Source of the DNA: Candidatus Latescibacterota bacterium
GTDB lineage: Bacteria; Latescibacterota; UBA2968; GCA-2709665
Direction: 5' to 3'
DNA length: 64,000 nt
Assembly: GCA_965208835.1 (NCBI GenBank)
Contig: OZ242358.1
Coordinates: 3,968,001-4,032,000 of the forward strand
Both the position numbers and the translations under genes were made by a program. Each line of letters begins with the position of its first letter. Positions within the stretch are counted from its first letter, which is position 1. Positions 37,861-64,000 of the stretch are shown here, in pieces. The notes under the pieces are model-generated. The model was not told the origin of the DNA. It did not search any database and saw only the letters and a program-made list of their open reading frames with translations.

Positions 37861-38424
37861 TCAACATTCCGCTACGACAGGATTCTCCGGGTCTTCCGGC
37901 CATCTGACCGGGTTTTCCCCGATGTATTGCCGAATCCTATTTAAGCTAGACTGATTCCTGATTACGTGGTCGTAGTAACTGCGCTGCCAGACCGCCGCAC
38001 CCGGCGTGCCGCGGAACGAGTTGATGCGTTTGGTTACGGAAGACTTGAACCCTGCCATAAGTGCGCCAAGTGACCTGGCGTGTGGCCCTCCAGGAGCGAC
38101 CGGCCGCTCTGTCCCCTTTCGTTCGTCATTGAGCATGACGATTCCGTGAATATGGTTGGGCATCACAATCCAGGCGTCCAATTGGACTTCACTGCGGACT
38201 TGTGCAGACTTCAACCATTCCTCGGCGGCGATCCGCCCCAAGTCGTTTAGCTGCGTCTCAGCGTCGACCACTTCGCCAAAAAGCAGCTCCCGTCCGAACG
38301 TGCAAGCCGTAATAAAGTAAGCTCCTTTACGAGAATAGTCATATTTCCGCAATCGGAGCGACTGACGACGACGTTTTCCAGGATAGAAAGAAGCGTTCGC
38401 TATCATCTCGGTGTTTTGAAACAC
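37861..38424 (-). mobile_element. REP-associated tyrosine transposase (RAYT, Y1 HUH family)
   Basis: RRQSLRL..YDYS..GAYFIT.CT, VMPNHIHGI (HUH), FKS, WQRSYYDHVIRN, YI.ENP.RW. Confidence 0.9.
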
Positions 38425-39767: not shown

Positions 39768-39964
39768 TGCGACCGGCCGGTCGCCCCTTCAGGCATCATT
39801 GTGGGTCCGAGACGGACCACGCTTCGCAGACCCTTTACACCGGATTGCTCTCGCCGGTTCCCTCGCTATAGTACGCCGTCCCCACATTGTAAATCGCGTC
39901 GCGCCTCTGGCAATACCCGTTTCTGCTCAAGGCGCGCTGCGCGTTTAAGGCGATGTCTCCATCC

Positions 39965-40186
39965 TCATTCTGATCCAGGATCCTCACCAGGTTCGTTTCG
40001 GCGCGGGGCGCAGACACGTTCCGCATCCGCCGCTTCCCACGCGGCCAGTTGTTCCGCGGTGGGCACATACAAGCCTGCTCTCCTGTAGTCGTCATCACTA
40101 AACGGCGTGCCGCCGGCATGCCAGGCGCGGCCGACGATCGGGTCAGTGAATCTTGAACCTCCCGGAGCGGGGTTTCGTTCGTCCAT
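39965..40186 (-). CDS. Repeat-flanked mini-protein (WHxDGTP family), 73 aa
   Basis: DPIVGRAWHAGGTPFSDDDYRRAGLYVPTAEQLAAWEAAD; ATG 4 nt after the repeat. Confidence 0.75.
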   Translation of the reverse strand: MDERNPAPGGSRFTDPIVGRAWHAGGTPFSDDDYRRAGLYVPTAEQLAAWEAADAERVCAPRRNEPGEDPGSE

Positions 40187-40193
40187 GATAGTT

Positions 40194-40418
40194 TCAATCC
40201 TTGTTCTGAAGGTGGACTTCGTCCGGTCCGACCCGCGGGCCTTCGTCAGTGTCGTGCTTGGCTTTCATATCGTCAATCAGTCGCTCGGTCTCGGCCCAAT
40301 GGGCAAGCTGTTCCGGGGTCGGAACGGGCAGGTTCGCCCGGCGATAGTCGGCATCGGAGAAGGGCGTGCCGTCCGGGTGCCAGCACTGAAAGCCGGCGGA
40401 GTCTTGTCTGTTTCGCAT
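40194..40418 (-). CDS. Repeat-flanked mini-protein (WHxDGTP family), 74 aa
   Basis: CWHPDGTPFSDADYRRANLPVPTPEQLAHWAETE; ATG 4 nt after the repeat; stop is the TGA of the next repeat's ATTGAAAC. Confidence 0.78.
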   Translation of the reverse strand: MRNRQDSAGFQCWHPDGTPFSDADYRRANLPVPTPEQLAHWAETERLIDDMKAKHDTDEGPRVGPDEVHLQNKD

Positions 40419-40477
40419 AGCTGTTTCAATCCCTATTCTGTTTGAAGGTCTCCGCCGTGCGAGCCGGCGACGAACGC

Positions 40478-52625: not shown

Positions 52626-53149
52626 TCAGCAGTCTGGCGTACCTGACCCGCGCCACGGCGTCAAACGTGGCCACCAGCGGCGCACGTTCAGGCAGTAGGT
52701 CTCGTTCGACCCCCGAATCTTTCTCGGAGTTTCGGCTCTTCATAAAGCAGCACGGTCAGGTGGAACGCGGCGAGCATCACCCCGGCGTACGCCGCAAGCC
52801 GGGCCCGGCCAAACAGTAGCGCCTGCCCTGAAATGATGATCAGCACGGAGATGTACATCGGGTTTCGCACGAACCGATAGAGGCCGGAAGCGACCAGCAT
52901 TTCGGTTTACGCCACCGGCGCCGGTGTGCCGCGCCCCTCGAGGACGAAACGGGCGAAGCAGTCCAGCAGGCAGGCCAGACCCGTCGCAACCGCCGCAACC
53001 CCCATTAATCGCTCGCCGGGCAACCCGAGCAGCAGTGGCTGTATCGTCCAGCCGACCAGTGCGAACGGGACGACACCGGCAACGACAGCCGGAGCGACCC
53101 AGAAGAAGACGAACGACCCGACGATCGCACGCGTACGTGTGCGCTTCAC
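52626..53149 (-). pseudogene. Isoprenylcysteine carboxylmethyltransferase/PEMT family gene, frameshifted
   Basis: GRGTPAP | LVASGLYRFVRNPMY...YEEPKLRERFG | YCLNVRRWWPR split over three segments with an in-frame stop. Confidence 0.75.
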
Positions 53150-53187
53150 GTTTCAATCCTTGTACTGATGGGAGTGACCAGAGATCG
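53150..53187 (-). repeat. Solitary CRISPR-like repeat unit
   Basis: GTTTCAATCCTTGTACTGATGGGAGTGACC on +, same family as the 40191, 60109 and 60337 repeats. Confidence 0.7.
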
Positions 53188-53292: not shown

Positions 53293-56200
53293 TCAATATT
53301 CCGGTGGTGAGAGATCGATCGCCCATTCTTTGAACTTCGAGACGTTGACGTCGGATCGGTCGAGGAGTGTAAGGAGTTCCTCCTGGCGGGGTTGCCCAAA
53401 GACAACCCGGTAGGCTGCGAGTTGACGTTTGAGGCGTACGAACGCTTCGACCTCCGTCGTGTATGGCAATAGTGGTACATGGCGCTGCACGAAGCAGTCT
53501 CCGGGGGCGATCCAGTGAGGTACCAGGTCGCTTTTCCCGGCGGCTCGCGCAGCCTGGTCGGCCAGCGCGAACATCTGTCTCCAGATATCTTCACCCGCCC
53601 TCCATGACGTCAAGGCGTCGTGCGCGTGGCGAGCAGCGACGTTTCGCCGGACCGCATGGCCCTTATAACGGTGAATCCGGCCTTCGCGTTGCTCAAGATC
53701 GACCGGATTGCCCGGAAGGTTCCAGTGGACCAGGGAGTGACACCACGGATGGAAGTCGAGCCCCTCCTGTCCAATCGACGTACTGGCAAGCACAAACGGC
53801 CGAAACGGGCTATTGAAAGCGTCCCTCACGACGTCCTGGCTGATGTGATCACCTTCGTCCGTTCGGATGTGGCCGAAGCGTAGCGCGAACGCCGTGCGAA
53901 GGCGGGTTACTTCGAGTTCAGGCTTTGTTCCACTTCCTCCCGCACCTTCTGTCTCAAAGAACCTCGCATGGACGCGAGAACGCATTGGACGTACAACCTG
54001 GATGAGTTTGCGGGCGCATCTGCCGGCGATCTCGTCACCGCTGGCGTCGCCGGACCACGACTCCTGGTCCCACAGCAGGTGCCACTGCTCGTCAAGTACT
54101 GCCTGCAGGTTCCCGTGGCGGCAGTAGCGAAGTACCAGTCGCCAGTAGGCCGAACCATCGCGCTCTTCCGCTCCTCTGTCGGCAAGCTGGCGCAGCAGCG
54201 CCGTCACGGCAGGCTGATTGAAGAGACGCCAGAACGCGACTGCAATCATGGCCGCGAACCGGCGACGTGAATCATCGCCAATTCCCGTCCCGTTTCTCAG
54301 GCTGCGTGCCGCGAGAATCGCCGGCGAACCAATGGCGACCTCGGTGAGCAATCTCGCAAGATTTGCCGGACGCCGGCCGAGTTTTCGCGGATCGACCCTG
54401 AGCAGATCGTCGATGTACGCACCGAAGCCTTCCGGATTTGGACGACCCGTGTCATCCGATAATCCAGGAAGTTCGCCATCCGCCCACGTGCCAAGAAAAC
54501 TGCGCAGATCCGGATCCATCAACAGCGGCGCCATCCACTCCCACCTGTCATCAATATCTCCTTCTTGCGGGTTAGGAAGCTTCGGATCGGCAAGAAGTTC
54601 GTCGACCCGGTCTCGCACCCACGCCCGGCGATCCTGTCCAGACCGAAAGTCCAACGGATGCGCCCGGTCCGCCAGCGGAAGGCACGGTATGAGCAGCAGC
54701 AGGAGACGATGGCGGGAAAGGCCGCCCAATTTCGACTTTGCGAGCCTTAAAAGTGGTCTCTGCTGCTCGGCAAGTTTCTCATATGACCCATTCCGGCCAC
54801 GCGTCATCAGTCGTTCAGCTTCGTAGCTTAGTACGGCGCTGACAACGTCGGGCACCACGTTCCAAGCCGAAAACAACAGGCGCTTCGTTGCTTTTTCCTT
54901 GCCCTTGAAGGGTCCTTCAAGCGGCCAGTACGGAAGCGTCGGCGGCATCCAAAGAAGGCGCCATATCCCCTTGTCGATCAACTCCCCGACCAATTCACGC
55001 AGCTTGGCACTTCCGGGGTCGATGCTTTCCCACCTACGTATCGTCGCTGGCGTCAAGAACGCCGACTTATGTTGCTGAAGAACCTCGACGATCTTTCCCG
55101 GCGTGTTAATTGCCTCGTCGAGTAGTTCGTTGAACCTGTAACCTCGCATGAAGTGAGCCAAATACGGAGCTGATTTCCAAAACGGCATCGGATCGCGGTC
55201 ACCGACGGCCCGAAACAACGCGTCGGCGGCCAGGTACTGGCGCACGTCGGTTGAGGTCACGGTCGCGTTACTCGGGACCTCTGCCACCATCGCGTCATTG
55301 TCTTCACTGGCTGCGACGCGCTCGGATCGCGCCATCACGTTCCTGAGCGTTCCTTCGACCTCGCGTTTCGCTTGTTCGACTCGCCCCGGCCCATCCGGTT
55401 CTCCCGCTGCCGCGCGCTTTAATGCTGACCCGAAACGCGAGAACTGGCTCTTAATCTCTTCGACAACCGCGTCATCGTCGCCATACAAGAACCTTGTTGT
55501 GGCCAGGAAGTCCTCGTAGTGGTCCTCGTGTTCGATCTCCGCATCTGCGGTGTAGAGTTTGTACGGCGTCGCGGAGAGCAAGAGCGTCCGCACACGCTTA
55601 CCGTCGTGCGCTTTGGCCTGGAACAACTCATGAGCCAGGTGCGCCGCGGGGTCTCGCTCGCCGTCACTTGTGTCGAGCAGCGACTTAAAGCGCTGGAACT
55701 CGTCCAGGATTACGAGGTCGGGCTCCAGGGCCTTGACGCACACTTTGGCGAGTACCCGGCGCAAATCCGATATAAGCCGGTCTCGCCGGTACCGCAGATC
55801 GTCCGGCCAGTAATTCCGGTAGTAGCCGAACGCACTCAGGATTTCTCTAAATCTGTACTCCAGACCGTGGCACTCATGAAACGCATTCTCAAACCTTCGC
55901 CGTATTGAGTCTTCGATAGGTCGGGGGCGGTTGTTGAGGAACCATCGCCAGTCATCCCGGTTCGTAATCCATCCCTGCAGGAAATTCATAAGCGCCGTGC
56001 GCCGTTCGGTCAGGGGATCGAGCAGTTGAAACAGCACCTCCCGTTCCGGGCGCTGGCCGGCGGATTGCCCCATGTTGAAGGATGTTCCCGGCGTGAAACT
56101 GACGAAGTTCAGCTTGCTGTCGACGAGACCTGGTTCGCCTTCCTTACGCGCCAGTTGCGTGGCCAACATCGTGAGACGTGTCGCCAATGCGAACGACCGT

Positions 56201-56487
56201 TCTTCGGCGCCTCCGATCCTCAGCTTTGGGAGATTGGCTCGTGCGATGCCGGCATTGCTGCAAATGTAGATGATGTCGATCCGTTTGACGTCGTCCCAGA
56301 GGTGATCGATGGCGCGCGCAATGATACCGCGGGCGACCAGCGTCTTCCCAAGGCCCACCTCGTCGGCCACCAGGAAGCGTCCTGTACTGTCTTCCGCAGT
56401 GAACAAGCGGTGGAAGGCATGTTCTACTGTCCGCCGTTGGAAGGATTTGAGTGGTTTAAGACCCGCGTCTACCGATGGACGCTTCAT
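53293..56487 (-). CDS. SF2 helicase of a putative Azaca-like defence operon
   Basis: RFLVADEVGLGKT, ILDEFQRF, LLSATPYK, AFNSPFRPFVLASTSIGQEGLDFH, DLEQREGRIHRY. Confidence 0.85.
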   Translation of the reverse strand: MKRPSVDAGLKPLKSFQRRTVEHAFHRLFTAEDSTGRFLVADEVGLGKTLVARGIIARAIDHLWDDVKRIDIIYICSNAGIARANLPKLRIGGAEERSFALATRLTMLATQLARKEGEPGLVDSKLNFVSFTPGTSFNMGQSAGQRPEREVLFQLLDPLTERRTALMNFLQGWITNRDDWRWFLNNRPRPIEDSIRRRFENAFHECHGLEYRFREILSAFGYYRNYWPDDLRYRRDRLISDLRRVLAKVCVKALEPDLVILDEFQRFKSLLDTSDGERDPAAHLAHELFQAKAHDGKRVRTLLLSATPYKLYTADAEIEHEDHYEDFLATTRFLYGDDDAVVEEIKSQFSRFGSALKRAAAGEPDGPGRVEQAKREVEGTLRNVMARSERVAASEDNDAMVAEVPSNATVTSTDVRQYLAADALFRAVGDRDPMPFWKSAPYLAHFMRGYRFNELLDEAINTPGKIVEVLQQHKSAFLTPATIRRWESIDPGSAKLRELVGELIDKGIWRLLWMPPTLPYWPLEGPFKGKEKATKRLLFSAWNVVPDVVSAVLSYEAERLMTRGRNGSYEKLAEQQRPLLRLAKSKLGGLSRHRLLLLLIPCLPLADRAHPLDFRSGQDRRAWVRDRVDELLADPKLPNPQEGDIDDRWEWMAPLLMDPDLRSFLGTWADGELPGLSDDTGRPNPEGFGAYIDDLLRVDPRKLGRRPANLARLLTEVAIGSPAILAARSLRNGTGIGDDSRRRFAAMIAVAFWRLFNQPAVTALLRQLADRGAEERDGSAYWRLVLRYCRHGNLQAVLDEQWHLLWDQESWSGDASGDEIAGRCARKLIQVVRPMRSRVHARFFETEGAGGSGTKPELEVTRLRTAFALRFGHIRTDEGDHISQDVVRDAFNSPFRPFVLASTSIGQEGLDFHPWCHSLVHWNLPGNPVDLEQREGRIHRYKGHAVRRNVAARHAHDALTSWRAGEDIWRQMFALADQAARAAGKSDLVPHWIAPGDCFVQRHVPLLPYTTEVEAFVRLKRQLAAYRVVFGQPRQEELLTLLDRSDVNVSKFKEWAIDLSPPEY

Positions 56488-58319
56488 GATCGTGGCTCCG
56501 GTGCGATTGCCTCCTCGACTGCCGTCCAAATACTGAATAGTTCGTCTGGCACGATCAGGCGCCCTTCTTCAGTCTTCCGAAGTTCGTCGATCAGGCGACG
56601 TACCGGCTTCAGGCGATCGGGGTCTCGGGACGCGGTACGGACGAGATCATCCAGCAAGGTCTCACCGCTCTGCCCTATTCCCCAGTTAGAGGAAGGTTCT
56701 CCTTCTCCGCTATCTTGCGCCCAGCCGAGTACAGTGTCGAGTCCGCCCAGCAACGCCCTCAGGAAACGAAGGAACTTCTCAGGGGTGTCCAGCAATCCCT
56801 TGAGTACGTGATGCATGCGATCTTCAGGCATACCGTGAGCCGGAAGTCGCAGGGTCATGCGGACGTCGTCCACGCCCTGGACGTTGACACTCAGCCGAAA
56901 GGCGATGAATGCCGTCAGACGCACAATGGGCAGATTCCAACTGATCGTTTTCTCCAGGCGCAGTGCTTGATCTTCGGCTACGGAGACGGGCCAGGCTTCG
57001 ACCTGGACATCGTCGGCCATTTGAAATTCGGGCCCGGTGATAGCCAGCGTCCATGAGTCGCCTGAGGAACCGCATCTCACTTGCAGGTTAGAATTCAAGA
57101 GGTCGTCCCCCAAGGCTTCAAGGCGTTTTCGGGCAGCGGCGATGGCTGGGTCTTCTATCTCCGGATCGACTCTCTTATACTTCATGCACAGCTTCCGAAA
57201 TCCGGCGTCAAGGAACCTATCGATGCCCTGACCGCTGTGGCCCCCTTTGCGTCCCTTCTTTCCCGTGATGGATGCAACCATTTCGACGTTTCTGCCATTG
57301 AACGCCGACGCTGTCAGGTTGGCGGAACCGACGTACCACGTAACGTCCCAACGGTGCTCCACGGCGATCATCTTGGCGTGCAGCCCCGACGGGCGATCAA
57401 TCCCGCCAGTCATCGGTTCGTTCTGCTCAGCCAGACTTTCCTCGGGCTCCCCATGCGCGGTATCCCTAAGGACGAATACATCGTTCCATTCCGCCAGTGC
57501 ATCTTCAGCGAGTCTGTCGAGTTCCTCCTGCCTGCTCACGAGCATTCGGTCGTTACCGCTCAACTCCCTGACGACCCCCAGTCCGGTCCGACTGATGAAC
57601 GGCGCCACCGCAAGTGTTCGATATCCATTCGACGGCGGTCGCCAGTGACGGCGACGCCTGGACAATCCGATTGAATGGAATTCGACAGGAGATGCGAAGC
57701 CGTCCGGGGCGGGAAACCTGATTCGTGAAACCTGATCGGCAAGTGCATCAATGCGATCGGCGACATCCGTGAGAACCGGGTTTACGGCCAGACGAGGTAG
57801 CGCTTCGAGGAATTCACGGAGTGGTCGGCTGACGGCCGCACGCCTCCTGCCCCGAAGCCGCGCCTCGCTCGCGAGCGCAACGTCCCACGAACGGTCAAAT
57901 GTCAGATTGCGCGACAGGATTGCAACGCGCAAAACGTCTTCGGCATCCTCCCCCGAGGCAACAAACCGAGCCGCCCACACCTTCGGGTGGAATGCGCCAC
58001 CGTTTGGGGCGCGTACGGCATGCACACTCGGCTCGAGCATTGAGTACAGAGGTCTCACGTTGCGTGGAATTGCAATGCCCGTTTCATCAACAAACACGTG
58101 GATACGGTCGCCAGCGTCACGGATCGCCTGGTGCAGCCTCAGTGGATCTTGAAGCAACTCATTCAACCCTTCGTCCGTATGCGCGAGCACCGATAACGGA
58201 AGCAGCAGCATCGTTTCCAGATCCAGGGTATAGGTCGTCAGTACAGCAAAGTCGAGGTCGTATCCGCTCGGCGGGCGGAGCAACTCGAAGGCTGTGGTAC
58301 GCGATTCGGGCGATAACAT
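56484..58319 (-). CDS. Phospholipase D-superfamily (HKD-like) nuclease of the putative defence operon
   Basis: LRPPSGY.LD.AV.TTYTLDL, FHPKVW...SRNLTFDRSWD, LHAKM...GSANLT; overlapping start/stop codons on both sides. Confidence 0.8.
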   Translation of the reverse strand: MLSPESRTTAFELLRPPSGYDLDFAVLTTYTLDLETMLLLPLSVLAHTDEGLNELLQDPLRLHQAIRDAGDRIHVFVDETGIAIPRNVRPLYSMLEPSVHAVRAPNGGAFHPKVWAARFVASGEDAEDVLRVAILSRNLTFDRSWDVALASEARLRGRRRAAVSRPLREFLEALPRLAVNPVLTDVADRIDALADQVSRIRFPAPDGFASPVEFHSIGLSRRRRHWRPPSNGYRTLAVAPFISRTGLGVVRELSGNDRMLVSRQEELDRLAEDALAEWNDVFVLRDTAHGEPEESLAEQNEPMTGGIDRPSGLHAKMIAVEHRWDVTWYVGSANLTASAFNGRNVEMVASITGKKGRKGGHSGQGIDRFLDAGFRKLCMKYKRVDPEIEDPAIAAARKRLEALGDDLLNSNLQVRCGSSGDSWTLAITGPEFQMADDVQVEAWPVSVAEDQALRLEKTISWNLPIVRLTAFIAFRLSVNVQGVDDVRMTLRLPAHGMPEDRMHHVLKGLLDTPEKFLRFLRALLGGLDTVLGWAQDSGEGEPSSNWGIGQSGETLLDDLVRTASRDPDRLKPVRRLIDELRKTEEGRLIVPDELFSIWTAVEEAIAPEPRS

Positions 58320-59530
58320 CAGGCGGCCAACCCCCTGTGAAGGTCGGTGAGAAACTGCCGGACGCGAACCCAGCGAAAGTCCATCCGACCAACGCCGACC
58401 CATGGTTTCCACTCCATCAGGCGACTCCGGTTTCCAAGTCGTGCGCGTGCTCCCTTCAGGTGTGACTCGCGTTCGGTAACCAACTCTCTTAACTGTTGGT
58501 CGTTGGCGATCCTGCCGGCATTCAACTTGGTAATGTGTCGAGACCAATCTTGAATGAAGAGTCGTTGGTGATGTGGAGCAAGCCCGCCGCGTCGAGCTAC
58601 CAATTCCCAGAGCGGATCCGGATCGAATGGTTGAGCTTCTTCCGCCTCACGCCCCGCCCATTCAGTGAGCTCTGCACGGAACGAACTGATTAATTCGCCA
58701 TCATCGTCAGTGTCAAGCATCTCGCGACGGTGTTCGGCCACAACCAGATTGTAGAGCAGTGGCATGCCCTCGACGTGTAGAGAGAACCGCCGGGCTAGTT
58801 CCACGGTATCACGAATACTCTGAGGTGCGCGGAGGGCGTCCGGATCGTCCCAGAAGTCGTCCCCGGGCGAATCGGATCCATTGCGGGCCAGCCACGCCAG
58901 CAGGGCACCGGCGCAACGTTCCTCCAGGCGGCCGAGAAGGAAGTCGGCCTCGTCACGGTTCAACGCGAAGGATGCCTCCCACGGAAAGCCAGCCGGCGGC
59001 GACGGCATACGCGGATGCCAGTGCGCATCACGGCTCCAGATAACGCCTGGATCGTCCGCCCGCCCCACACTGCCGCGGCCATCCGCAAGCGCGTCAAAGT
59101 GCGAGTGGTACCAACTCAGGCTCTGCTGCGGCCTAAAGATGCCCCATCGAGTCAGCGCGCTCCAGTATATCGAACTTGGTAACCGGACGAGTGAGTGGCG
59201 GGCGTATACGCCGATGATGCCCTTCTTGTCTTCGCCCTGTTCCAATCGTCCGATAAGATCGACTTCCGCCTGACGCGCGGCTCGCTCCACGTCTACACTC
59301 CTTACCCGACGCGTCTCCAACCTCCGGTAGATCCATGGAATGAGGAGTACATAACGCAGCCGCGTCTGGATATAAGACGTGCCGGGAAAAAGTGCGTCAG
59401 AGATCGCGTCCCGTAGGTTTCCGAGCCCCATCTCGTCGAGCGTGCCCTGCTCGTTGAACAGGTCCAGCACCCGCCGCATCTTGTCGCGGTCGCCCGCCGT
59501 CAGGTCGAGCCAGGTCAACGTCGCCTGCAT
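58319..59530 (-). CDS. DUF6361-like protein, first gene of the putative defence operon
   Basis: LTWLD...GTLDEMGLG.LRDAISD.LFPGTS.IQTRLRY.L.IPW, PSSIYWSAL..WGI, E..LKG.RARL, FRW. Confidence 0.75.
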   Translation of the reverse strand: MQATLTWLDLTAGDRDKMRRVLDLFNEQGTLDEMGLGNLRDAISDALFPGTSYIQTRLRYVLLIPWIYRRLETRRVRSVDVERAARQAEVDLIGRLEQGEDKKGIIGVYARHSLVRLPSSIYWSALTRWGIFRPQQSLSWYHSHFDALADGRGSVGRADDPGVIWSRDAHWHPRMPSPPAGFPWEASFALNRDEADFLLGRLEERCAGALLAWLARNGSDSPGDDFWDDPDALRAPQSIRDTVELARRFSLHVEGMPLLYNLVVAEHRREMLDTDDDGELISSFRAELTEWAGREAEEAQPFDPDPLWELVARRGGLAPHHQRLFIQDWSRHITKLNAGRIANDQQLRELVTERESHLKGARARLGNRSRLMEWKPWVGVGRMDFRWVRVRQFLTDLHRGLAA

Positions 59531-59557
59531 TGCGTGAGTCCTTGTACTGATGGATTC

Positions 59558-59749
59558 CTACCGGGAACCGCCGGACTGACGACGTCGACGCGCACATTCA
59601 GCATCGGCCTTTGCCCACAGAGTGAGCTGGGAGAGCGTAGGCACAGGCAGGCCGGCGTTGCGGTAGTCCTGGTCACGGTAAGGTGTCCCGTCCGCATGCC
59701 AGCACCGGCCTGGGCCACCTGTCTGTTTGTCGACGACTCGCTTGGTCAT
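59558..59749 (-). CDS. Repeat-flanked mini-protein (WHxDGTP family), 63 aa
   Basis: GGPGRCWHADGTPYRDQDYRNAGLPVPTLSQLTLWAKADA; ATG 4 nt after the repeat. Confidence 0.78.
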   Translation of the reverse strand: MTKRVVDKQTGGPGRCWHADGTPYRDQDYRNAGLPVPTLSQLTLWAKADAECARRRRQSGGSR

Positions 59750-59756
59750 ATTGGTT

Positions 59757-59960
59757 TCAATCCCCGTTCTGATGAAAGATCCCCAACGGGTTTTGTCTTT
59801 CCGCTTCAGCCCAGGCTAATAGCTGTTCATCCGTTGGGGGAGTCAATCCCGCCTTGATGTAGTCGGCTTTGTTGAAGGGCGTTCCGTCTTCATGCCAAGC
59901 CTGACCAACAATCGGATCGGCCATTTTTCTGCCTTTGGTGATGTTGGGATCTCTTGGCAT
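59757..59960 (-). CDS. Repeat-flanked mini-protein (WHxDGTP family), 67 aa
   Basis: DPIVGQAWHEDGTPFNKADYIKAGLTPPTDEQLLAWAEAE; own AAGGAAGG RBS; stop inside the repeat. Confidence 0.78.
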   Translation of the reverse strand: MPRDPNITKGRKMADPIVGQAWHEDGTPFNKADYIKAGLTPPTDEQLLAWAEAERQNPLGIFHQNGD

Positions 59961-60111
59961 GTCAAACCTTCCTTGATTCGGCGTTTATGATTATGGGAGC
60001 GTCTAATTTTGATTCTTTGGCGTCTTGCCAACCGTCAAGGCAGGCTTTCATGGATGCACGGGAAAAGGTTGGGCCGTTTCTGTAATTTGTGCGCTTGTCG
60101 CTGTAGGGATT

Positions 60112-60332
60112 TCAATCCTTGTTCTGATGGAAGATCCCCAACGAGTCGACCTGCTGGCGCTGGTCGTCTTGGGCCCACTCGAGCAGCTGCTTGGCCGTGG
60201 GACAACCTGTCCGGCACGGCGATACTCTTCCAGTGTGCAGGGTGTACCGTCCTCACGCCACATACGAGAGATGCCGCCTGACTGTCTGTTTGGGCCTTTG
60301 ATGAGGCGGAATCTTCTTGGTCGCTTGGGCAT
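60112..60332 (-). pseudogene. Repeat-flanked mini-protein (WHxDGTP family) with a 1-nt frameshift
   Basis: MPKRP...MWREDGTPCTLEEYRRAGQVVP / TAKQLLEWAQDDQRQQVDSLGIFHQNKD*; shift near 60198-60202. Confidence 0.7.
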
Positions 60333-60394
60333 GCTGGTTTCAATCCTTGTTGTGACGGAAGATACTCGCAGGGCACCGGCCACTGTTTTTGTTT

Positions 60395-60610
60395 TCAATC
60401 CGCTCCCCTGCGCGGGGAGCGACTGGAGTTGCCCGAGGACTGACGCCGCCGCGCTCGCCGAGCATCGGCGCGAGCCCAGAGCATGAGCTGGAAGAGCGTA
60501 GGTACAGGCAGGCCGGCCTTGCGGTAGTCCTGGTCACTGTAAGGTGTTCCGTCGGCATGCCAGCAGCGGCCTGGGCCGCCTGTGTGTCTGTCAAGGATTC
60601 GCTTGGGCAT
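60395..60610 (-). CDS. Repeat-flanked mini-protein (WHxDGTP family), 71 aa
   Basis: MPKRILDRHTGGPGRCWHADGTPYSDQDYRKAGLPVPTLFQLMLWARADA; ATG 5 nt after the terminal I-C repeat; stop inside the I-C-like repeat. Confidence 0.78.
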   Translation of the reverse strand: MPKRILDRHTGGPGRCWHADGTPYSDQDYRKAGLPVPTLFQLMLWARADARRARRRQSSGNSSRSPRRGAD

Positions 60611-60615
60611 GCGGT

Positions 60616-62360
60616 GTATCACTCCGCGCCCCCGCGTGGGGGGCGACCCAAGACCCGAGACGTGGGCGGTATGGCTTTCGTGTTTCAATCCACGCCCCCG
60701 CGTGGGGGGCGACGTCCGGCTGCTGCCGGCGTCAGGATAACGCGGTCGTTTCAATCCACGCCCCCGCGTGGGGGGCGACGTATATGTTGGAAAACCTTTG
60801 GTTCTTTGTCTGTTTCAATCCACGCCCCCGCGTGGGGGGCGACAGACCGGCCCGACTTCGATGTGCGGGATAGGGTTGTTTCAATCCACGCCCCCGCGTG
60901 GGGGGCGACTGTGACTACTGCCATACGCTATCCGAATCGACCGGTTTCAATCCACGCCCCCGCGTGGGGGGCGACAGATTCACTCTCAAGCGGGGGAGTC
61001 CAATCAAATTGTTTCAATCCACGCCCCCGCGTGGGGGGCGACCGCCATCAGAGGCGGCACACGCACCTCCATCTTGTTTCAATCCACGCCCCCGCGTGGG
61101 GGGCGACGTGTCAATCGTTCCGCCGAAAAACAAATCCGGGTGTGTTTCAATCCACGCCCCCGCGTGGGGGGCGACCTGGGCCGTATCCGTGACGACCCGC
61201 AGCCGGTTCTGTTTCAATCCACGCCCCCGCGTGGGGGGCGACTGACCATACGGCAGTTTTTCGCCGCCGTTGCCATGTTTCAATCCACGCCCCCGCGTGG
61301 GGGGCGACCCCGCCTGGGTTCCGCCAAACAGACGCCTGACAAGTTTCAATCCACGCCCCCGCGTGGGGGGCGACCCTGATACGATCAAACCACATTCACC
61401 TATTAAGGTTTCAATCCACGCCCCCGCGTGGGGGGCGACTCAGGATCTCGGCGTCATCATCCAGAGATCGGAGTTTCAATCCACGCCCCCGCGTGGGGGG
61501 CGACCAGCATATCGAAGACGCCATCAACCAGGCACTGGAGGTTTCAATCCACGCCCCCGCGTGGGGGGCGACAGCCGGAGAAGTTTGTGCGCCGCATCTT
61601 CGGATGTTTCAATCCACGCCCCCGCGTGGGGGGCGACACACGAAATATCCGGGCCATCCCTACGAGTTTATGTTTCAATCCACGCCCCCGCGTGGGGGGC
61701 GACGAGGTATCGGAGGCCAAAGTCCTTGATGCCAAGGTTTCAATCCACGCCCCCGCGTGGGGGGCGACCGGAGGCTACCGCGGCGGCGGAGGACATCCTA
61801 TTTGTTTCAATCCACGCCCCCGCGTGGGGGGCGACTCACGGGCAAGAGAACGGGCGGCGGGCCGGGCAAGAGTTTCAATCCACGCCCCCGCGTGGGGGGC
61901 GACCTTGTACGTCGCCTCGAGCAGCTGGCGGGCCGTGTTTCAATCCACGCCCCCGCGTGGGGGGCGACTGGCCTCCCGGCTCTCTTTCGCTATGCTGATT
62001 AGTTTCAATCCACGCCCCCGCGTGGGGGGCGACCCAGCCGGCGGGCCAGGGTCTGGACGTGGGTCTGTTTCAATCCACGCCCCCGCGTGGGGGGCGACAC
62101 CCTCGTCAGACAGTACCCGGGCAGAGTATGAGTTTCAATCCACGCCCCCGCGTGGGGGGCGACCAAACACATGGATCAAACTCTGTAGTAAATATAGTTT
62201 CAATCCACGCCCCCGCGTGGGGGGCGACATCGGAATGAAATCCGAATGCCGGATGCTGGAGGTGTTTCAATCCACGCCCCCGCGTGGGGGGCGACGATTG
62301 TGGGCAAAGACAACCAGATGGACGGTTTGTTTCAATCCACGCCCCCGCGTGGGGGGCGAC
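60616..62360 (-). CRISPR. Type I-C CRISPR array, 27 repeats and 26 spacers (about 32-36 nt)
   Basis: 32-nt repeat GTCGCCCCCCACGCGGGGGCGTGGATTGAAAC (minus strand) at ~66-nt period; degenerate terminal copy at 60616-60647. Confidence 0.97.
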
Positions 62361-62546
62361 TGTTGCAAGCTAATACGTTGTGTCGCAATACGAAAATGAC
62401 GAGCTGGCGCGAACCGTATCCAGCTCTCTTAGTTTAGAATAGCTACTTGCACCATCGTGACTCGAATCTCTTTAAGTATCAATGGGTTGTACAATGCGCG
62501 GACCTCCCCGTGTTTACCTGACCGCTTGTGGTTCGCACCTGCCCAC
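62361..62546 (-). promoter_or_regulatory. CRISPR leader
   Basis: AT-richer non-coding stretch between cas2 and the first intact repeat. Confidence 0.7.
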
Positions 62547-62837
62547 TCACACAATCAATGTTCCGTTCAAGTCGGTCGCCGGCTTGGCACCAATGTGCTC
62601 TACACGTCGCTTCCAATTAGCACCAAGGAAATAATATCTGAGACTGTCGGTTTCTAAATTGATGATCGCCTCAAGCTGGGCACTTAAAGCGGCCCATTGC
62701 GCGGGCTCCACCTCAATCTCGAACACAGAAAACTGCACTCTTTGTCCAAAATCGCGACATATCTTAGCGACACGACGTAAACGACGTGCGCCGCCATCGG
62801 ATGTCGTCGAGACGTCGTACGTAACGAGAACCATCAT
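62547..62837 (-). CDS. cas2: CRISPR-associated endonuclease Cas2
   Basis: MMVLVTYDVST...GARRLRRVAKIC..FGQRVQFSVFE...DSLRYY.LG. Confidence 0.96.
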   Translation of the reverse strand: MMVLVTYDVSTTSDGGARRLRRVAKICRDFGQRVQFSVFEIEVEPAQWAALSAQLEAIINLETDSLRYYFLGANWKRRVEHIGAKPATDLNGTLIV

Positions 62838-62899: not shown

Positions 62900-63934
62900 T
62901 CATTTCCATAACCACGGCGGGTGGGCATCTAAGTCGCCTCGAAGATGCCGAGCCAGCAATTGTGCTTGGAGATATGGAACTAAACCGAGCGGTGCCTGCT
63001 CCCCAAGAAAGGGATGGCGACGCTCTACACGCTTTCGCTCCTGCCATGCACTGAGAACCGTTTTGCGAGCGGCATCGCTCATTGAGACGCTGCCGCCTTC
63101 TCGAACTTGGAAGTCCTTAGCGCGTATTTGCCGACGATTGACTAGCGATAGCACAAGCCGATCAGCCAAGACGGGTCGCAGCTCTTCCATAAGGTCTAGC
63201 GCAAGACTCGGACGGCCGGGACGATCTCTATGAAAGAAGCCCACTGCCGGATCCAAGCCAACGCTCTCGGCGGCAGAGTTGCAGTCGTGAACGAGAAGCG
63301 TATATAGAAATGAAAGCAGGGCATTCACAGGGTCACGTGGTGGCCGACGGTTGCGACCTGCAAATGCCATCTCTGGTTCGGGTACGCGGATCAGGAGACC
63401 AAAGAACGAAAAATAGAGCCGTGCGGCCTCGCCTTCAAAACCTCGTAGTCTATCAACACTGTCGTGGCCGTCGCTAATGCGTTGCACAATCTGCCGCAGG
63501 CGATTTGTGGCGACGGACATAGCTTCTCGGCTAGAAAGCTCAAGTTGGTCTCCATAGTCGCGCTGCGCTCTTTGCAAGACGGCTCTCTGATTAGCGATCT
63601 TGCCGACGAGAATGCTGCGGACGATTTCTTCCGGTGTGTCGCTGACTCTATATTGTGCGCGACGCAGCAGTACATTGCCAGAAACTGGACCCTCGACTCG
63701 GGCTTGGAATCGGCCGAATCGACTTAGGAGTACTAAGACGATGCCACCGGCAGCGCAGGCTTGGATCAGAGGTGGAGATATATAGATGCTGCCGAACACC
63801 ACCACCGACCCCAGCATGTGGAACGGAACCCTCACACGTTCCTCGCCCTCTACTTCCGCGACCAGATTCTCGCCGTCCTTGGTCAGACGTGCTTCAGGCG
63901 TAGTAACGTATAGCGTATTGAGCAACCGCCTCAT
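62900..63934 (-). CDS. cas1: CRISPR-associated endonuclease Cas1 (type I-C)
   Basis: MRRLLNTLYVTT, GPVSGNVLLRRAQY, LRGFEGEAA, RNRRPPRDPVNALLSF.Y, GRPSLALDLMEE.R, LARHLRGDLD. Confidence 0.96.
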   Translation of the reverse strand: MRRLLNTLYVTTPEARLTKDGENLVAEVEGEERVRVPFHMLGSVVVFGSIYISPPLIQACAAGGIVLVLLSRFGRFQARVEGPVSGNVLLRRAQYRVSDTPEEIVRSILVGKIANQRAVLQRAQRDYGDQLELSSREAMSVATNRLRQIVQRISDGHDSVDRLRGFEGEAARLYFSFFGLLIRVPEPEMAFAGRNRRPPRDPVNALLSFLYTLLVHDCNSAAESVGLDPAVGFFHRDRPGRPSLALDLMEELRPVLADRLVLSLVNRRQIRAKDFQVREGGSVSMSDAARKTVLSAWQERKRVERRHPFLGEQAPLGLVPYLQAQLLARHLRGDLDAHPPWLWK

Positions 63935-64000
63935 GGGTGTTCTCCAGACTCGGCAAGGTGCGACGATAGAGTGCGGGTTCGCCAAGCGAGAACCGAATGT
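63931..64000 (-). CDS. 3' end of the upstream gene, probably cas4 (partial)
   Basis: Open frame ending in an ATGA overlap with cas1; identity inferred only from the usual I-C gene order. Confidence 0.4.
   Translation of the reverse strand, partial: HSVLAWRTRTLSSHLAESGEHP

Follow-up and report, generated by a model that had tools for sequence, protein, structure and literature searches.

Small protein-coding genes framed by CRISPR repeats behind a type I-C array of a Latescibacterota bacterium

In a bacterium of the Candidatus Latescibacterota (assembly GCA_965208835.1, contig OZ242358.1), the trailer of a type I-C CRISPR array continues into a zone of gene cassettes which are themselves delimited by CRISPR repeats. 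The whole stretch of DNA analysed, hereafter the window, comprises 64,000 nucleotides (nt; positions 3,968,001 to 4,032,000 of the contig), and all its relevant features lie on the minus strand. Four co-oriented small open reading frames (ORFs), the mini-genes A to D, directly follow the degenerate 27th repeat at the old end of the array, and a genome-wide search brought the number of copies to six, all within the window, with E and F located 20 kb from the others. The canonical CRISPR spacer is a non-coding, unique and invader-derived sequence of about 30-40 nt, unlike the units that occur here between repeats, which are protein-coding, paralogous and some 185-225 nt long. Most likely, to judge from the sequences compared, these units are array-resident gene cassettes encoding a small nucleic-acid-binding protein. 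The array, the mini-genes and the repeats that frame them are as follows, R2 and R3 being two repeat families that form arrays in related genomes (genomes are designated by G numbers, the present one being G000, and loci by L numbers; aa, amino acids):

60616..62360, minus strand: type I-C CRISPR array, 27 repeats of 32 nt with a spacing of 64-68 (repeat family D1)
60616..60647, minus strand: last (27th) I-C repeat, degenerate, from repeat search and sequence reading
60395..60610, minus strand: mini-gene A, 71 aa, ATG 5 nt past the degenerate I-C repeat; hidden Markov model (HMM) E 1e-25
60391..60423, minus strand: I-C-like variant repeat of 33 nt with a compensated stem (family D3), its 3' half matching R3 of relatives
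60337..60372, minus strand: R2 (type I-B family) relic, 29/36 identical to the consensus; 4 nt separate it from the ATG of B
60112..60332, minus strand: mini-gene B, a pseudogene with a frameshift near 60200, start 4 nt past an R2 relic
60109..60144, minus strand: R2 relic, 33/36, ending GATTGAAAT, after B
59757..59960, minus strand: mini-gene C, 67 aa, extending into the next repeat and stopping at its TGA
59754..59789, minus strand: R2 relic, 32/36; 4 nt separate it from the ATG of D
59558..59749, minus strand: mini-gene D, 63 aa, start 4 nt past an R2 relic
59532..59567, minus strand: degenerate R2 relic, 21/36; 1 nt separates it from the ATG of zacA, and the junction is the same in G011, G009 and G006
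40423..40458, minus strand: R2 relic, 26/36; 4 nt separate it from the ATG of E
40194..40418, minus strand: mini-gene E, 74 aa, its stop being the TGA inside the next repeat
40191..40226, minus strand: R2 relic, 28/36; 4 nt separate it from the ATG of F
39965..40186, minus strand: mini-gene F, 73 aa, with a degenerate R2 relic behind it
~39955-39990, minus strand: degenerate R2 relic, 25/36, following F

An earlier, sequence-only reading of the window had described four paralogous ORFs after the last I-C repeat, with a common motif W-[HR]-x-D-G-T-P-[FYC]-x3-[DE]-Y-x2-A-G-x3-P-T-x2-Q-L-x2-W-A, and had spoken of six peptides. Three of the four ORFs (A, C and D) are intact, but B is a frameshifted pseudogene: its unedited ORF of 94 aa runs to 60048, an alternative frame recovers the stretch P-T-x2-Q-L-x2-W-A and stops in the next repeat at ~60112, and an intact orthologue exists in the relative G011 (locus L045, 11014..10811). 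The motif occurs in A, C and D, as well as in B up to the frameshift, and E and F, retrieved by the genome search, complete the set of six. All belong to a family with a conserved core of 30 residues, W-H-x-D-G-T-P-[FY]-x3-D-Y-x2-A-G-x2-[VP]-P-T-x2-Q-L-x2-W-A, carried by a basic and hydrophilic protein of ~58-75 aa which reads as Arg/Lys-rich at both termini and devoid of any long hydrophobic run. A and D display 83% DNA identity over 169 nt, and D differs from its G011 orthologue by a single amino acid.

The ORFs had further been described as separated by CRISPR-like repeats. The repeats are real, but they mostly belong to R2 and not to the I-C family, and C lacks a directly preceding repeat, its upstream gap of 150 nt containing none. 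Among the inter-ORF repeats, only the one after A is I-C-like; the remainder belong to R2, a family of ~36 nt ending CATCAGAACAAGGATTGAAAC, which has six sites and no array in this 5.18-Mb genome, against none for a reversed control pattern. As for the ORF ends, A, B (in the alternative frame), C and E do terminate at a TGA inside GATTGAAAC (for A, the TGA in GATTGAAA of the following 33-nt variant repeat), but in relatives most copies have a stop of their own, with 4-10 nt left to the repeat. By chance, some 9 occurrences of GATTGAAAC would be expected on each strand of the genome; outside the array, its minus-strand matches cluster at the cassettes, and chance is excluded. A general idea of non-stop messenger RNAs, combining ORFs that end at the TGA in GATTGAAAC with a Cas6 cut, was dropped since most copies in relatives possess their own stop before the repeat; the reading of the repeat in all three frames by database members also counts against it.

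Outside this genome, the family occurs in 12 of the 14 other genomes of the genus and in one of the two genomes of the sister genus, but in none of the 146 further genomes of the phylum searched (14 of 168 in all, this genome counted), and within the genus the 12 gene-bearing genomes are exactly the 12 that possess R2 repeats. A copy census of 20-kb stretches from 13 relatives, together with the window, comprises 34 copies in 14 genomes, with one to six copies per genome. In 27 of the 34 copies only 2-6 nt lie between the end of a repeat, either R2 or I-C, and the initial ATG of the ORF, and in one further copy an R3 repeat ends 13 nt before it; the remaining six (three F-type copies, L055, one copy of L056, and C in the window) show a degraded repeat only, or a repeat 120-150 nt off. 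At the other side, a same-strand repeat starts between -18 and +105 nt from the end of the profile match in 31 of the 34 copies, usually 4-10 nt past the stop of the ORF itself. All the repeats counted are co-oriented with their mini-gene. The check that had been proposed for the family, a profile search for repeat-flanked homologues, came out in favour of the sequence-only reading, with flanked copies in 13 other genomes and homologues inside an unrelated array (L100, below); the evidence for framing covers the 14 genomes and three metagenome loci, L098-L100, out of ~90 database homologues.

In several relatives the copies stand at true arrays: some directly adjoin the terminal repeat of an array (64 and ~75 units), others lie between R3 and R2 arrays. 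A cluster of three mini-genes in G010 is followed, after its last repeat, by a sequence with 85% identity to 128 nt of the trailer of the real array, so this cluster is built like an array that has genes for spacers. No copy of the array leader occurs upstream of it. At loci L050, L051 and L052 (G010, G013 and G001), a conserved sequence with an ORF-like reading, V[IAV][SR]VS[DG]QS, lies 10-11 nt after lone R2 repeats and appears to be the common array trailer and not a gene. At L054 (G012:C5, 9600-18100), a block made of a mini-gene, an R2 repeat and the first ~800 nt of a 371-aa gene occurs on both sides of the 75-unit R2 array, which looks as if it sits inside a duplication.

The mini-genes encode a protein that has been kept by selection, as had been suspected from its steady core and diverging ends. 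Nei-Gojobori estimates were obtained from a codon alignment of 27 of the 34 copies, excluding B, the split copies at L054 (two) and L056 (one), L057, the L048 copy that lacks a start and the L052 copy that is fused to a long ORF. For the 30-codon core, the median ratio of nonsynonymous to synonymous substitution rates (dN/dS) amounts to 0.22 (pooled pN/pS 0.33), as compared to 0.79 (pooled 0.72) for the N- and C-terminal flanks. Four orthologue-like pairs, at a saturated dS of 1.6-2.1, show a dN of ~0.10 and a dN/dS of 0.05-0.08. The core of the mini-protein is accordingly under purifying selection, and homologues at 35-75% identity occur in other genomes and metagenomes. The region has 60% G+C and many overlapping ORFs, such that one might suspect chance ORFs in the decayed sequence of a GC-rich array, with no genes at all; the contrast between core and flanks, the conservation at saturated dS and the homologues just mentioned refute this suspicion, which is so improbable as to be negligible. 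Real, translated genes in spacer-like slots are, from these substitution patterns, highly probable.

The repeats which frame the mini-genes belong to more than one family. True R2 arrays, with repeats of 37 nt at a spacing of ~74, occur in relatives (64 units in G010, ~75 in G012, others in G003 and G006). Since the R2 array of G010 adjoins genes for Cas4, Cas1, Cas3, Cas5b, Cas7 (Cst2/DevR), a Cas8b-like protein and Cas6b, it is of type I-B. The present genome contains no homologue of the G010 Cas6b, Cas5b, Cas7b or Cas8b and no match to PF01881 or PF17262. On sequence grounds, the inter-ORF repeats are mostly relics of such a type I-B (Cas6b) array system, now lost from this genome. The third family, R3, consists of repeats of 37 nt with a stem-loop and forms arrays in relatives; its 3' end, GGATTGAAAC, is common to the I-C, R2 and R3 families. 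Two matches to GGATTGAAAC also occur in G000:C1:47500-48200, outside the window, among tandem units of ~75-100 nt rich in AGGATTAAGCAGGATT that are not a CRISPR array. The last 20 nt at the 3' side of the repeats upstream of the mini-genes (one I-C, the others R2 or R3) are identical to the consensus at 15-20 of 20 positions, while the synonymous sites of the paralogues are near saturation, and the relics must therefore be constrained or homogenised; they are no better preserved in genomes with Cas6b than in genomes without it. The repeat family can also exist without the mini-gene because G015, from another genus of the same family, has 92 R2-type matches and Cas6b but no mini-gene; G012 has 82 R2 repeats and no Cas6b_C match. 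A regulatory mini-array at 60337-60423 (repeat, 15-29 nt, repeat), a pattern which recurs twice in G011, was considered and rejected, its spacer having no other match longer than 14 nt in the genome.

When metagenome contigs were scanned with a profile restricted to distant members of the alignment, three loci emerged, L098, L099 and L100, of which L099 belongs to the same genus. L100, an 18-kb contig, carries a different repeat of 37 nt in ~46 copies, with a spacing of ~77 and six long gaps; one gap, of 612 bp, contains a homologue of 102 aa and another a homologue of 68 aa, both on the strand of the repeats. These two homologues are significant with an HMM built from the five intact copies of the window alone (E 9e-7 and 6.5e-5, scaled to 1e6 sequences). 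The layout thus recurs across one genus with three repeat families and, in addition, in an unrelated array. Besides the two family members, the six inter-repeat gaps of L100 (1367-7912), which measure 600-970 bp, contain co-oriented ORFs of 86-150 aa with no Pfam match.

Larger genes of the window are framed in the same manner as the mini-genes:

58319-59530, minus strand: zacA (PADLOC ZacA, E 2.6e-121)
56484-58322, minus strand: zacB (PADLOC ZacB, E 5.1e-162)
53293-56529, minus strand: zacC (PADLOC ZacC, E 0)
53150..53185, minus strand: R2 relic, 26/36, immediately followed by the GTG of a methyltransferase-like gene
52688..53149, minus strand: isoprenylcysteine-methyltransferase-like gene, split into ORFs of 80 aa and 70 aa (NF040696, E 4.5e-7 and 1.6e-9, below the curated cut-off)

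The three zac genes (53293..59530, minus strand; Pfam DUF6361, PLDc_2 and Helicase_C) form a complete defence operon of 6.2 kb whose zacA-zacB-zacC order matches the PADLOC ZacABC models, and R2 relics lie 1 nt before the ATG of zacA and ~120 nt after zacC, a framing shared with G011, G009 and G006. The methyltransferase-like gene is intact, with 174 aa, in G011, G009, G006 and G002; the repeat before it is of the R3 type in G011, G009 and G006 and of the R2 type in G000 and G002, the junction 'GAAAC|GTG' being constant in all five genomes. G011 possesses more cassettes between lone repeats, including one for a DUF4126 membrane protein. The mini-gene before zacA is of the D type in G000 and G011 and of the E type in G009 and G006. 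In run X7, one contig, at depth 2, joins 59531 to 60112 and thereby skips C and D; the comparison of runs concerns contigs only, in which most joints at repeats are indistinguishable from array units of other loci. From the cassette order, the swap of repeats at the 174-aa gene and the X7 joint, the break points of rearrangement coincide with repeats. The sequence-only reading had proposed a CRISPR-embedded small-protein system; the framed paralogues agree with this, but E and F lie 20 kb from the array and larger genes are framed alike. As ZacABC and the methyltransferase-like gene are framed like the mini-genes, the unit is a zone of repeat-delimited cassettes, of which the mini-gene is the most frequent, and not a peptide system alone.

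With respect to its identity, the mini-protein had not been recognised by the sequence-only reading, and no relative of it was found in Pfam, PADLOC, PHROG or the NCBI-named families, in the viral and plasmid collections IMG/VR, INPHARED and PLSDB, or, with copy E as a query, in the ESM Atlas; Rfam gave nothing for 39500-64000. The family is rare, with 44 cluster representatives at E <= 1e-3 among 1.84 billion proteins. An AlphaFold model has a mean predicted local distance difference test (pLDDT) score of 76, rising to 86-90 for residues 21-50, which comprise most of the core, and consists of a short beta bridge and two helices; the predicted complex of two copies of the mini-protein scores 0.01. 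In the PDB the profile matches a single entry, the bacterial type IB topoisomerase 2f4q_A, at residues 19-37 of its N-terminal region (E 0.02, domain E 0.14), and no gene for a type IB topoisomerase (PF01028) occurs in 31 related genomes. The only fused forms are five proteins of 367-464 aa (P0024, P0028 and P0081-P0083), in which the motif stands between an N-domain, likened to AGOG/HhH-GPD glycosylases by a language-model search, and a C-terminal helix-turn-helix (HTH_73 or AbiEi_4) that remains below the Pfam cut-offs. The topoisomerase match and the fused forms point to DNA, as weak leads neither of which amounts to proof.

Small products of no known family could also derive from anti-CRISPR genes or mobile elements which once inserted into CRISPR repeats, their remnants now having a repeat at either end. 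That prophages can integrate into such repeats is on record in a preprint (10.1101/2020.10.09.333658), and the 6.2-kb defence operon is framed likewise. Against this stand the absence of an integrase and of any relative in the three mobile-element collections, the co-orientation of every copy with its repeats at a fixed offset of 2-6 nt, and the position of the copies at the old end of arrays, which are not interrupted. No spacer targets the copies, since 231 spacers gave matches of only 10-14 nt to the mini-genes; the 25 own spacers gave a single match, of 17 nt, to this genome. Such an origin is very unlikely.

The explanation preferred here starts from the host locus, which fits type I-C by virtue of Cas1c and Cas2, encoded inside the window beside ~32-nt stem-loop repeats ending ATTGAAAC; cas1, cas2, the array and the mini-genes all lie on the minus strand, as had been noted at the outset.

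62900..63985, minus strand: cas1, type I-C (NCBIfam TIGR03640 cas1_DVULG, E 5e-150, 499 bits for a cut-off of 385)
62547..62837, minus strand: cas2 (NCBIfam TIGR01573, E 1.5e-19)
62631..62658, minus strand: sigma-70-like promoter match in the leader, upstream of the first repeat (consensus match only)

Read-through from the array leader would transcribe the cassettes as the 3' part of the CRISPR RNA precursor (pre-crRNA). The leader contains the single sigma-70-like match of the interval 59300-62700, where shuffled sequences give a mean of 1.0, and simple scans from the leader to zacA found no promoter-like site and no minus-strand terminator-like site in between. Recombination or integration at repeat boundaries would duplicate and shuffle the cassettes, and the product would be a small nucleic-acid-binding protein acting on the array or its repeats, either as DNA or as pre-crRNA; by analogy with the protein Cbp1, it might aid the transcription or the stability of long arrays. 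That the expression of the mini-genes depends on transcription of the array is fairly probable, whereas a function that concerns CRISPR arrays, as opposed to an incidental association, is given slightly less than an even chance. The statement as a whole, with framed cassettes, read-through, shuffling and a nucleic-acid-binding product that acts on arrays, stands slightly better than even.

Several observations weigh against this explanation. Seven of the 34 copies are no longer intact, having lost their start or acquired a frameshift or an in-frame stop, and some copies in relatives have no true array in the 20 kb examined. E and F lie 20 kb off the array, among metal-transport genes and a fragment resembling IS200. 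Outside the genus, the copy of L098 stands on a 2-kb contig without repeats, and the ATGs of L100 are ~150 nt from a repeat, which means that membership of an array is shared but tight framing is not. Regarding the product, no fold match was found in the PDB (Foldseek best E 2.4; VIA-align on 48,161 chains, best Z 3.2), and the topoisomerase match is marginal and came from one of several database searches tried. The translation signals are not ideal either. This genome uses Shine-Dalgarno sites, and the 3' end of AGGA peaks 6-9 nt before the starts (154 of 4198 long ORFs at 7 nt); the AGGA of the repeat lies 11-12 nt before the ATGs of the mini-genes, a distance found for 34-36 ORFs against a background of 7-24. 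The same AGGA lies 8 nt before zacA and 7 nt before the 174-aa gene and, owing to this difference in spacing, the repeat could be a good ribosome-binding site for the large cassettes and a weak one for the mini-genes. The latter may depend on re-initiation instead; in the pairs C-D and E-F, the second ATG follows the stop of the upstream ORF at a distance of 10 nt. Finally, Cas6b occurs in only three of the 14 gene-bearing genomes (G003, G006 and G010) and is missing from the other 11; given this count and the lack of type I-B effector genes here, R2-framed cassettes persist without the repeat-processing enzyme. The 11 genomes without Cas6b, taken with the position of E and F, speak against a strict tie to the processing of CRISPR RNA (crRNA).

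The IS200/Y1-transposase-like fragment mentioned above spans 37864-38424 (minus strand), 1.5 kb downstream of E-F, and corresponds to the C-terminal part only (Pfam E 2.6e-5).

Another idea is that the cassette serves as a guard, or as an addiction module. In other species, the cut made by Cas6b lies 8 nt from the 3' end of the repeat, on its upstream side, and that made by Cas5c 11 nt. Such a cut would strip AAGGA from the leader of the mini-gene, Cascade would coat its first codons, and a growth-stopping protein would be made only when crRNA processing or loading fails, through loss of cas genes or an anti-CRISPR, following the logic of CreTA with a protein in place of an RNA. The start codon, which in 27 of 34 copies comes 2-6 nt past the repeat, would, from the architecture of Cascade, fall within the part of the crRNA held by Cas5 and the first Cas7, and the AAGGA of the repeat spans the expected cut. 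Toxin-antitoxin cargo under the control of mini-arrays is documented in CRISPR loci (10.1101/2023.03.03.530964). However, 11 of the 14 genomes have no Cas6b and yet keep intact copies, although a toxin gene left unprocessed ought to kill the cell or disappear; the protein, hydrophilic and basic, is unlike known toxins; the AGGA is badly spaced for the mini-ORFs; and the cut sites are those of other species. A guard module is therefore held to be improbable.

The main rival of the read-through explanation is a selfish or hitchhiking gene with no role in immunity, for which arrays would be a favourable residence, being transcribed, rarely deleted and provided with repeats that allow duplication and transfer. 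It may use a DNA-binding product or the Cas1-Cas2 of the host for insertion, and the framing would then be the record of its spread. The copies kept under purifying selection in genomes devoid of the cognate I-B system fit this view, as do the differences in cassette order between genomes, with breaks at repeats (E type or D type before zacA, and the X7 joint at depth 2), the same 174-aa gene abutting repeats of the R3 type (three genomes) or of the R2 type (two genomes), the one to six copies per genome with 7 of 34 decayed, and the rarity of the family. On the other hand, no transposase or integrase travels with the mini-gene, no copy stands on a phage, plasmid or viral contig of IMG/VR, INPHARED or PLSDB, and a dN/dS of 0.05-0.08 at saturated dS means that the protein matters to its carrier; a specific association with arrays in two unrelated lineages would be left to explain. 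The 11 genomes without Cas6b and the location of E and F among metal-transport genes keep the selfish gene alive, as a possible but rather unlikely alternative, and at the same time lower the guard module.

A broader view, which goes beyond the read-through of framed cassettes and is unlikely in this full form, would regard the CRISPR arrays of these bacteria as platforms for gene cassettes and as the counterpart of integrons: whole genes, from the dedicated family of ~60 aa up to the 6-kb defence operon, would be inserted and exchanged exactly at the boundaries between repeat and spacer, by Cas1-Cas2 or by recombination of repeats, and expressed from the array with the repeat as a leader, the mini-protein being the specialist of this niche. 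It would bind repeats for its own insertion or for the upkeep of the array, or be made only when crRNA processing fails. If arrays do hold such cassettes, they can also store and express genes, and the locus becomes a system for asking whether the adaptation machinery or repeat recombination can move gene-sized DNA, whether crRNA processing can gate translation, and whether long bacterial arrays have dedicated protein helpers. It is also of concern for annotation, in that programs for array detection break up or drop such loci and those for gene calling pass over ORFs located in arrays, with the consequence that similar cases may hide in public data.

To our knowledge, every accessory element built from CRISPR repeats works as RNA. 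According to Shmakov et al. 2023 (10.1101/2023.03.03.530964), CreTA and the mini-arrays of standalone repeats act as RNAs, a short pseudo-spacer between two repeats guiding Cascade to a promoter. They resemble the present case by their degenerate repeats outside the main array, which are selected and tied to cargo genes, and by a possible link between cas function and the expression of the cargo, but here an ORF of 180-220 nt under protein-level selection takes the place of the spacer. An RNA guard of the CreTA type was rejected on this ground, the signal being at the protein level, and also because the sole short pseudo-spacer (60337-60423) has no genomic partner longer than 14 nt. The toxins of the type I toxin-antitoxin modules of Clostridioides difficile are small hydrophobic membrane peptides, controlled by antisense RNA antitoxins. 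These modules adjoin the arrays of that species (PMC5961336) and share with the mini-genes the physical linkage of genes for very small proteins to arrays, but they stand beside arrays, unframed. A small hydrophobic toxin of this type was dismissed as a candidate, since the mini-proteins, read directly, are charged and basic, without any long hydrophobic stretch. Cbp1, the CRISPR repeat-binding protein of the Sulfolobales (PMC3315313, PMC10883916), is a candidate functional analogue as a small DNA-binding protein which serves long arrays. It shows no sequence relation to the mini-protein, which has no Pfam match, cbp1 lies outside arrays, and repeat binding would still be a presumed property in the present case.

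Integron cassettes are co-oriented ORFs devoid of promoters, each with a short recombination repeat, which depend on one upstream promoter and are shuffled between genomes. The rows of repeat-bounded, co-oriented cassettes described here are similar, but their boundaries consist of CRISPR repeats (32-37 nt, from families of true arrays) and not of attC sites. Prophages inserted in CRISPR repeats, as described in that preprint (10.1101/2020.10.09.333658), also represent foreign DNA flanked by repeats. Their insertion is integrase-driven, on the kilobase scale and disrupts the array, whereas the present units of 190 bp have a fixed orientation and offset and no integrase. An anti-CRISPR carried by mobile elements was likewise set aside, given that IMG/VR, INPHARED and PLSDB contain no relative of the mini-protein. 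Full-text literature searches, which leave aside the standalone-repeat tables of Shmakov et al. 2023 where such loci might be listed, found no description of protein genes in spacer positions. Each of the nearest known systems differs from the architecture described here in at least one of the defining features tested.

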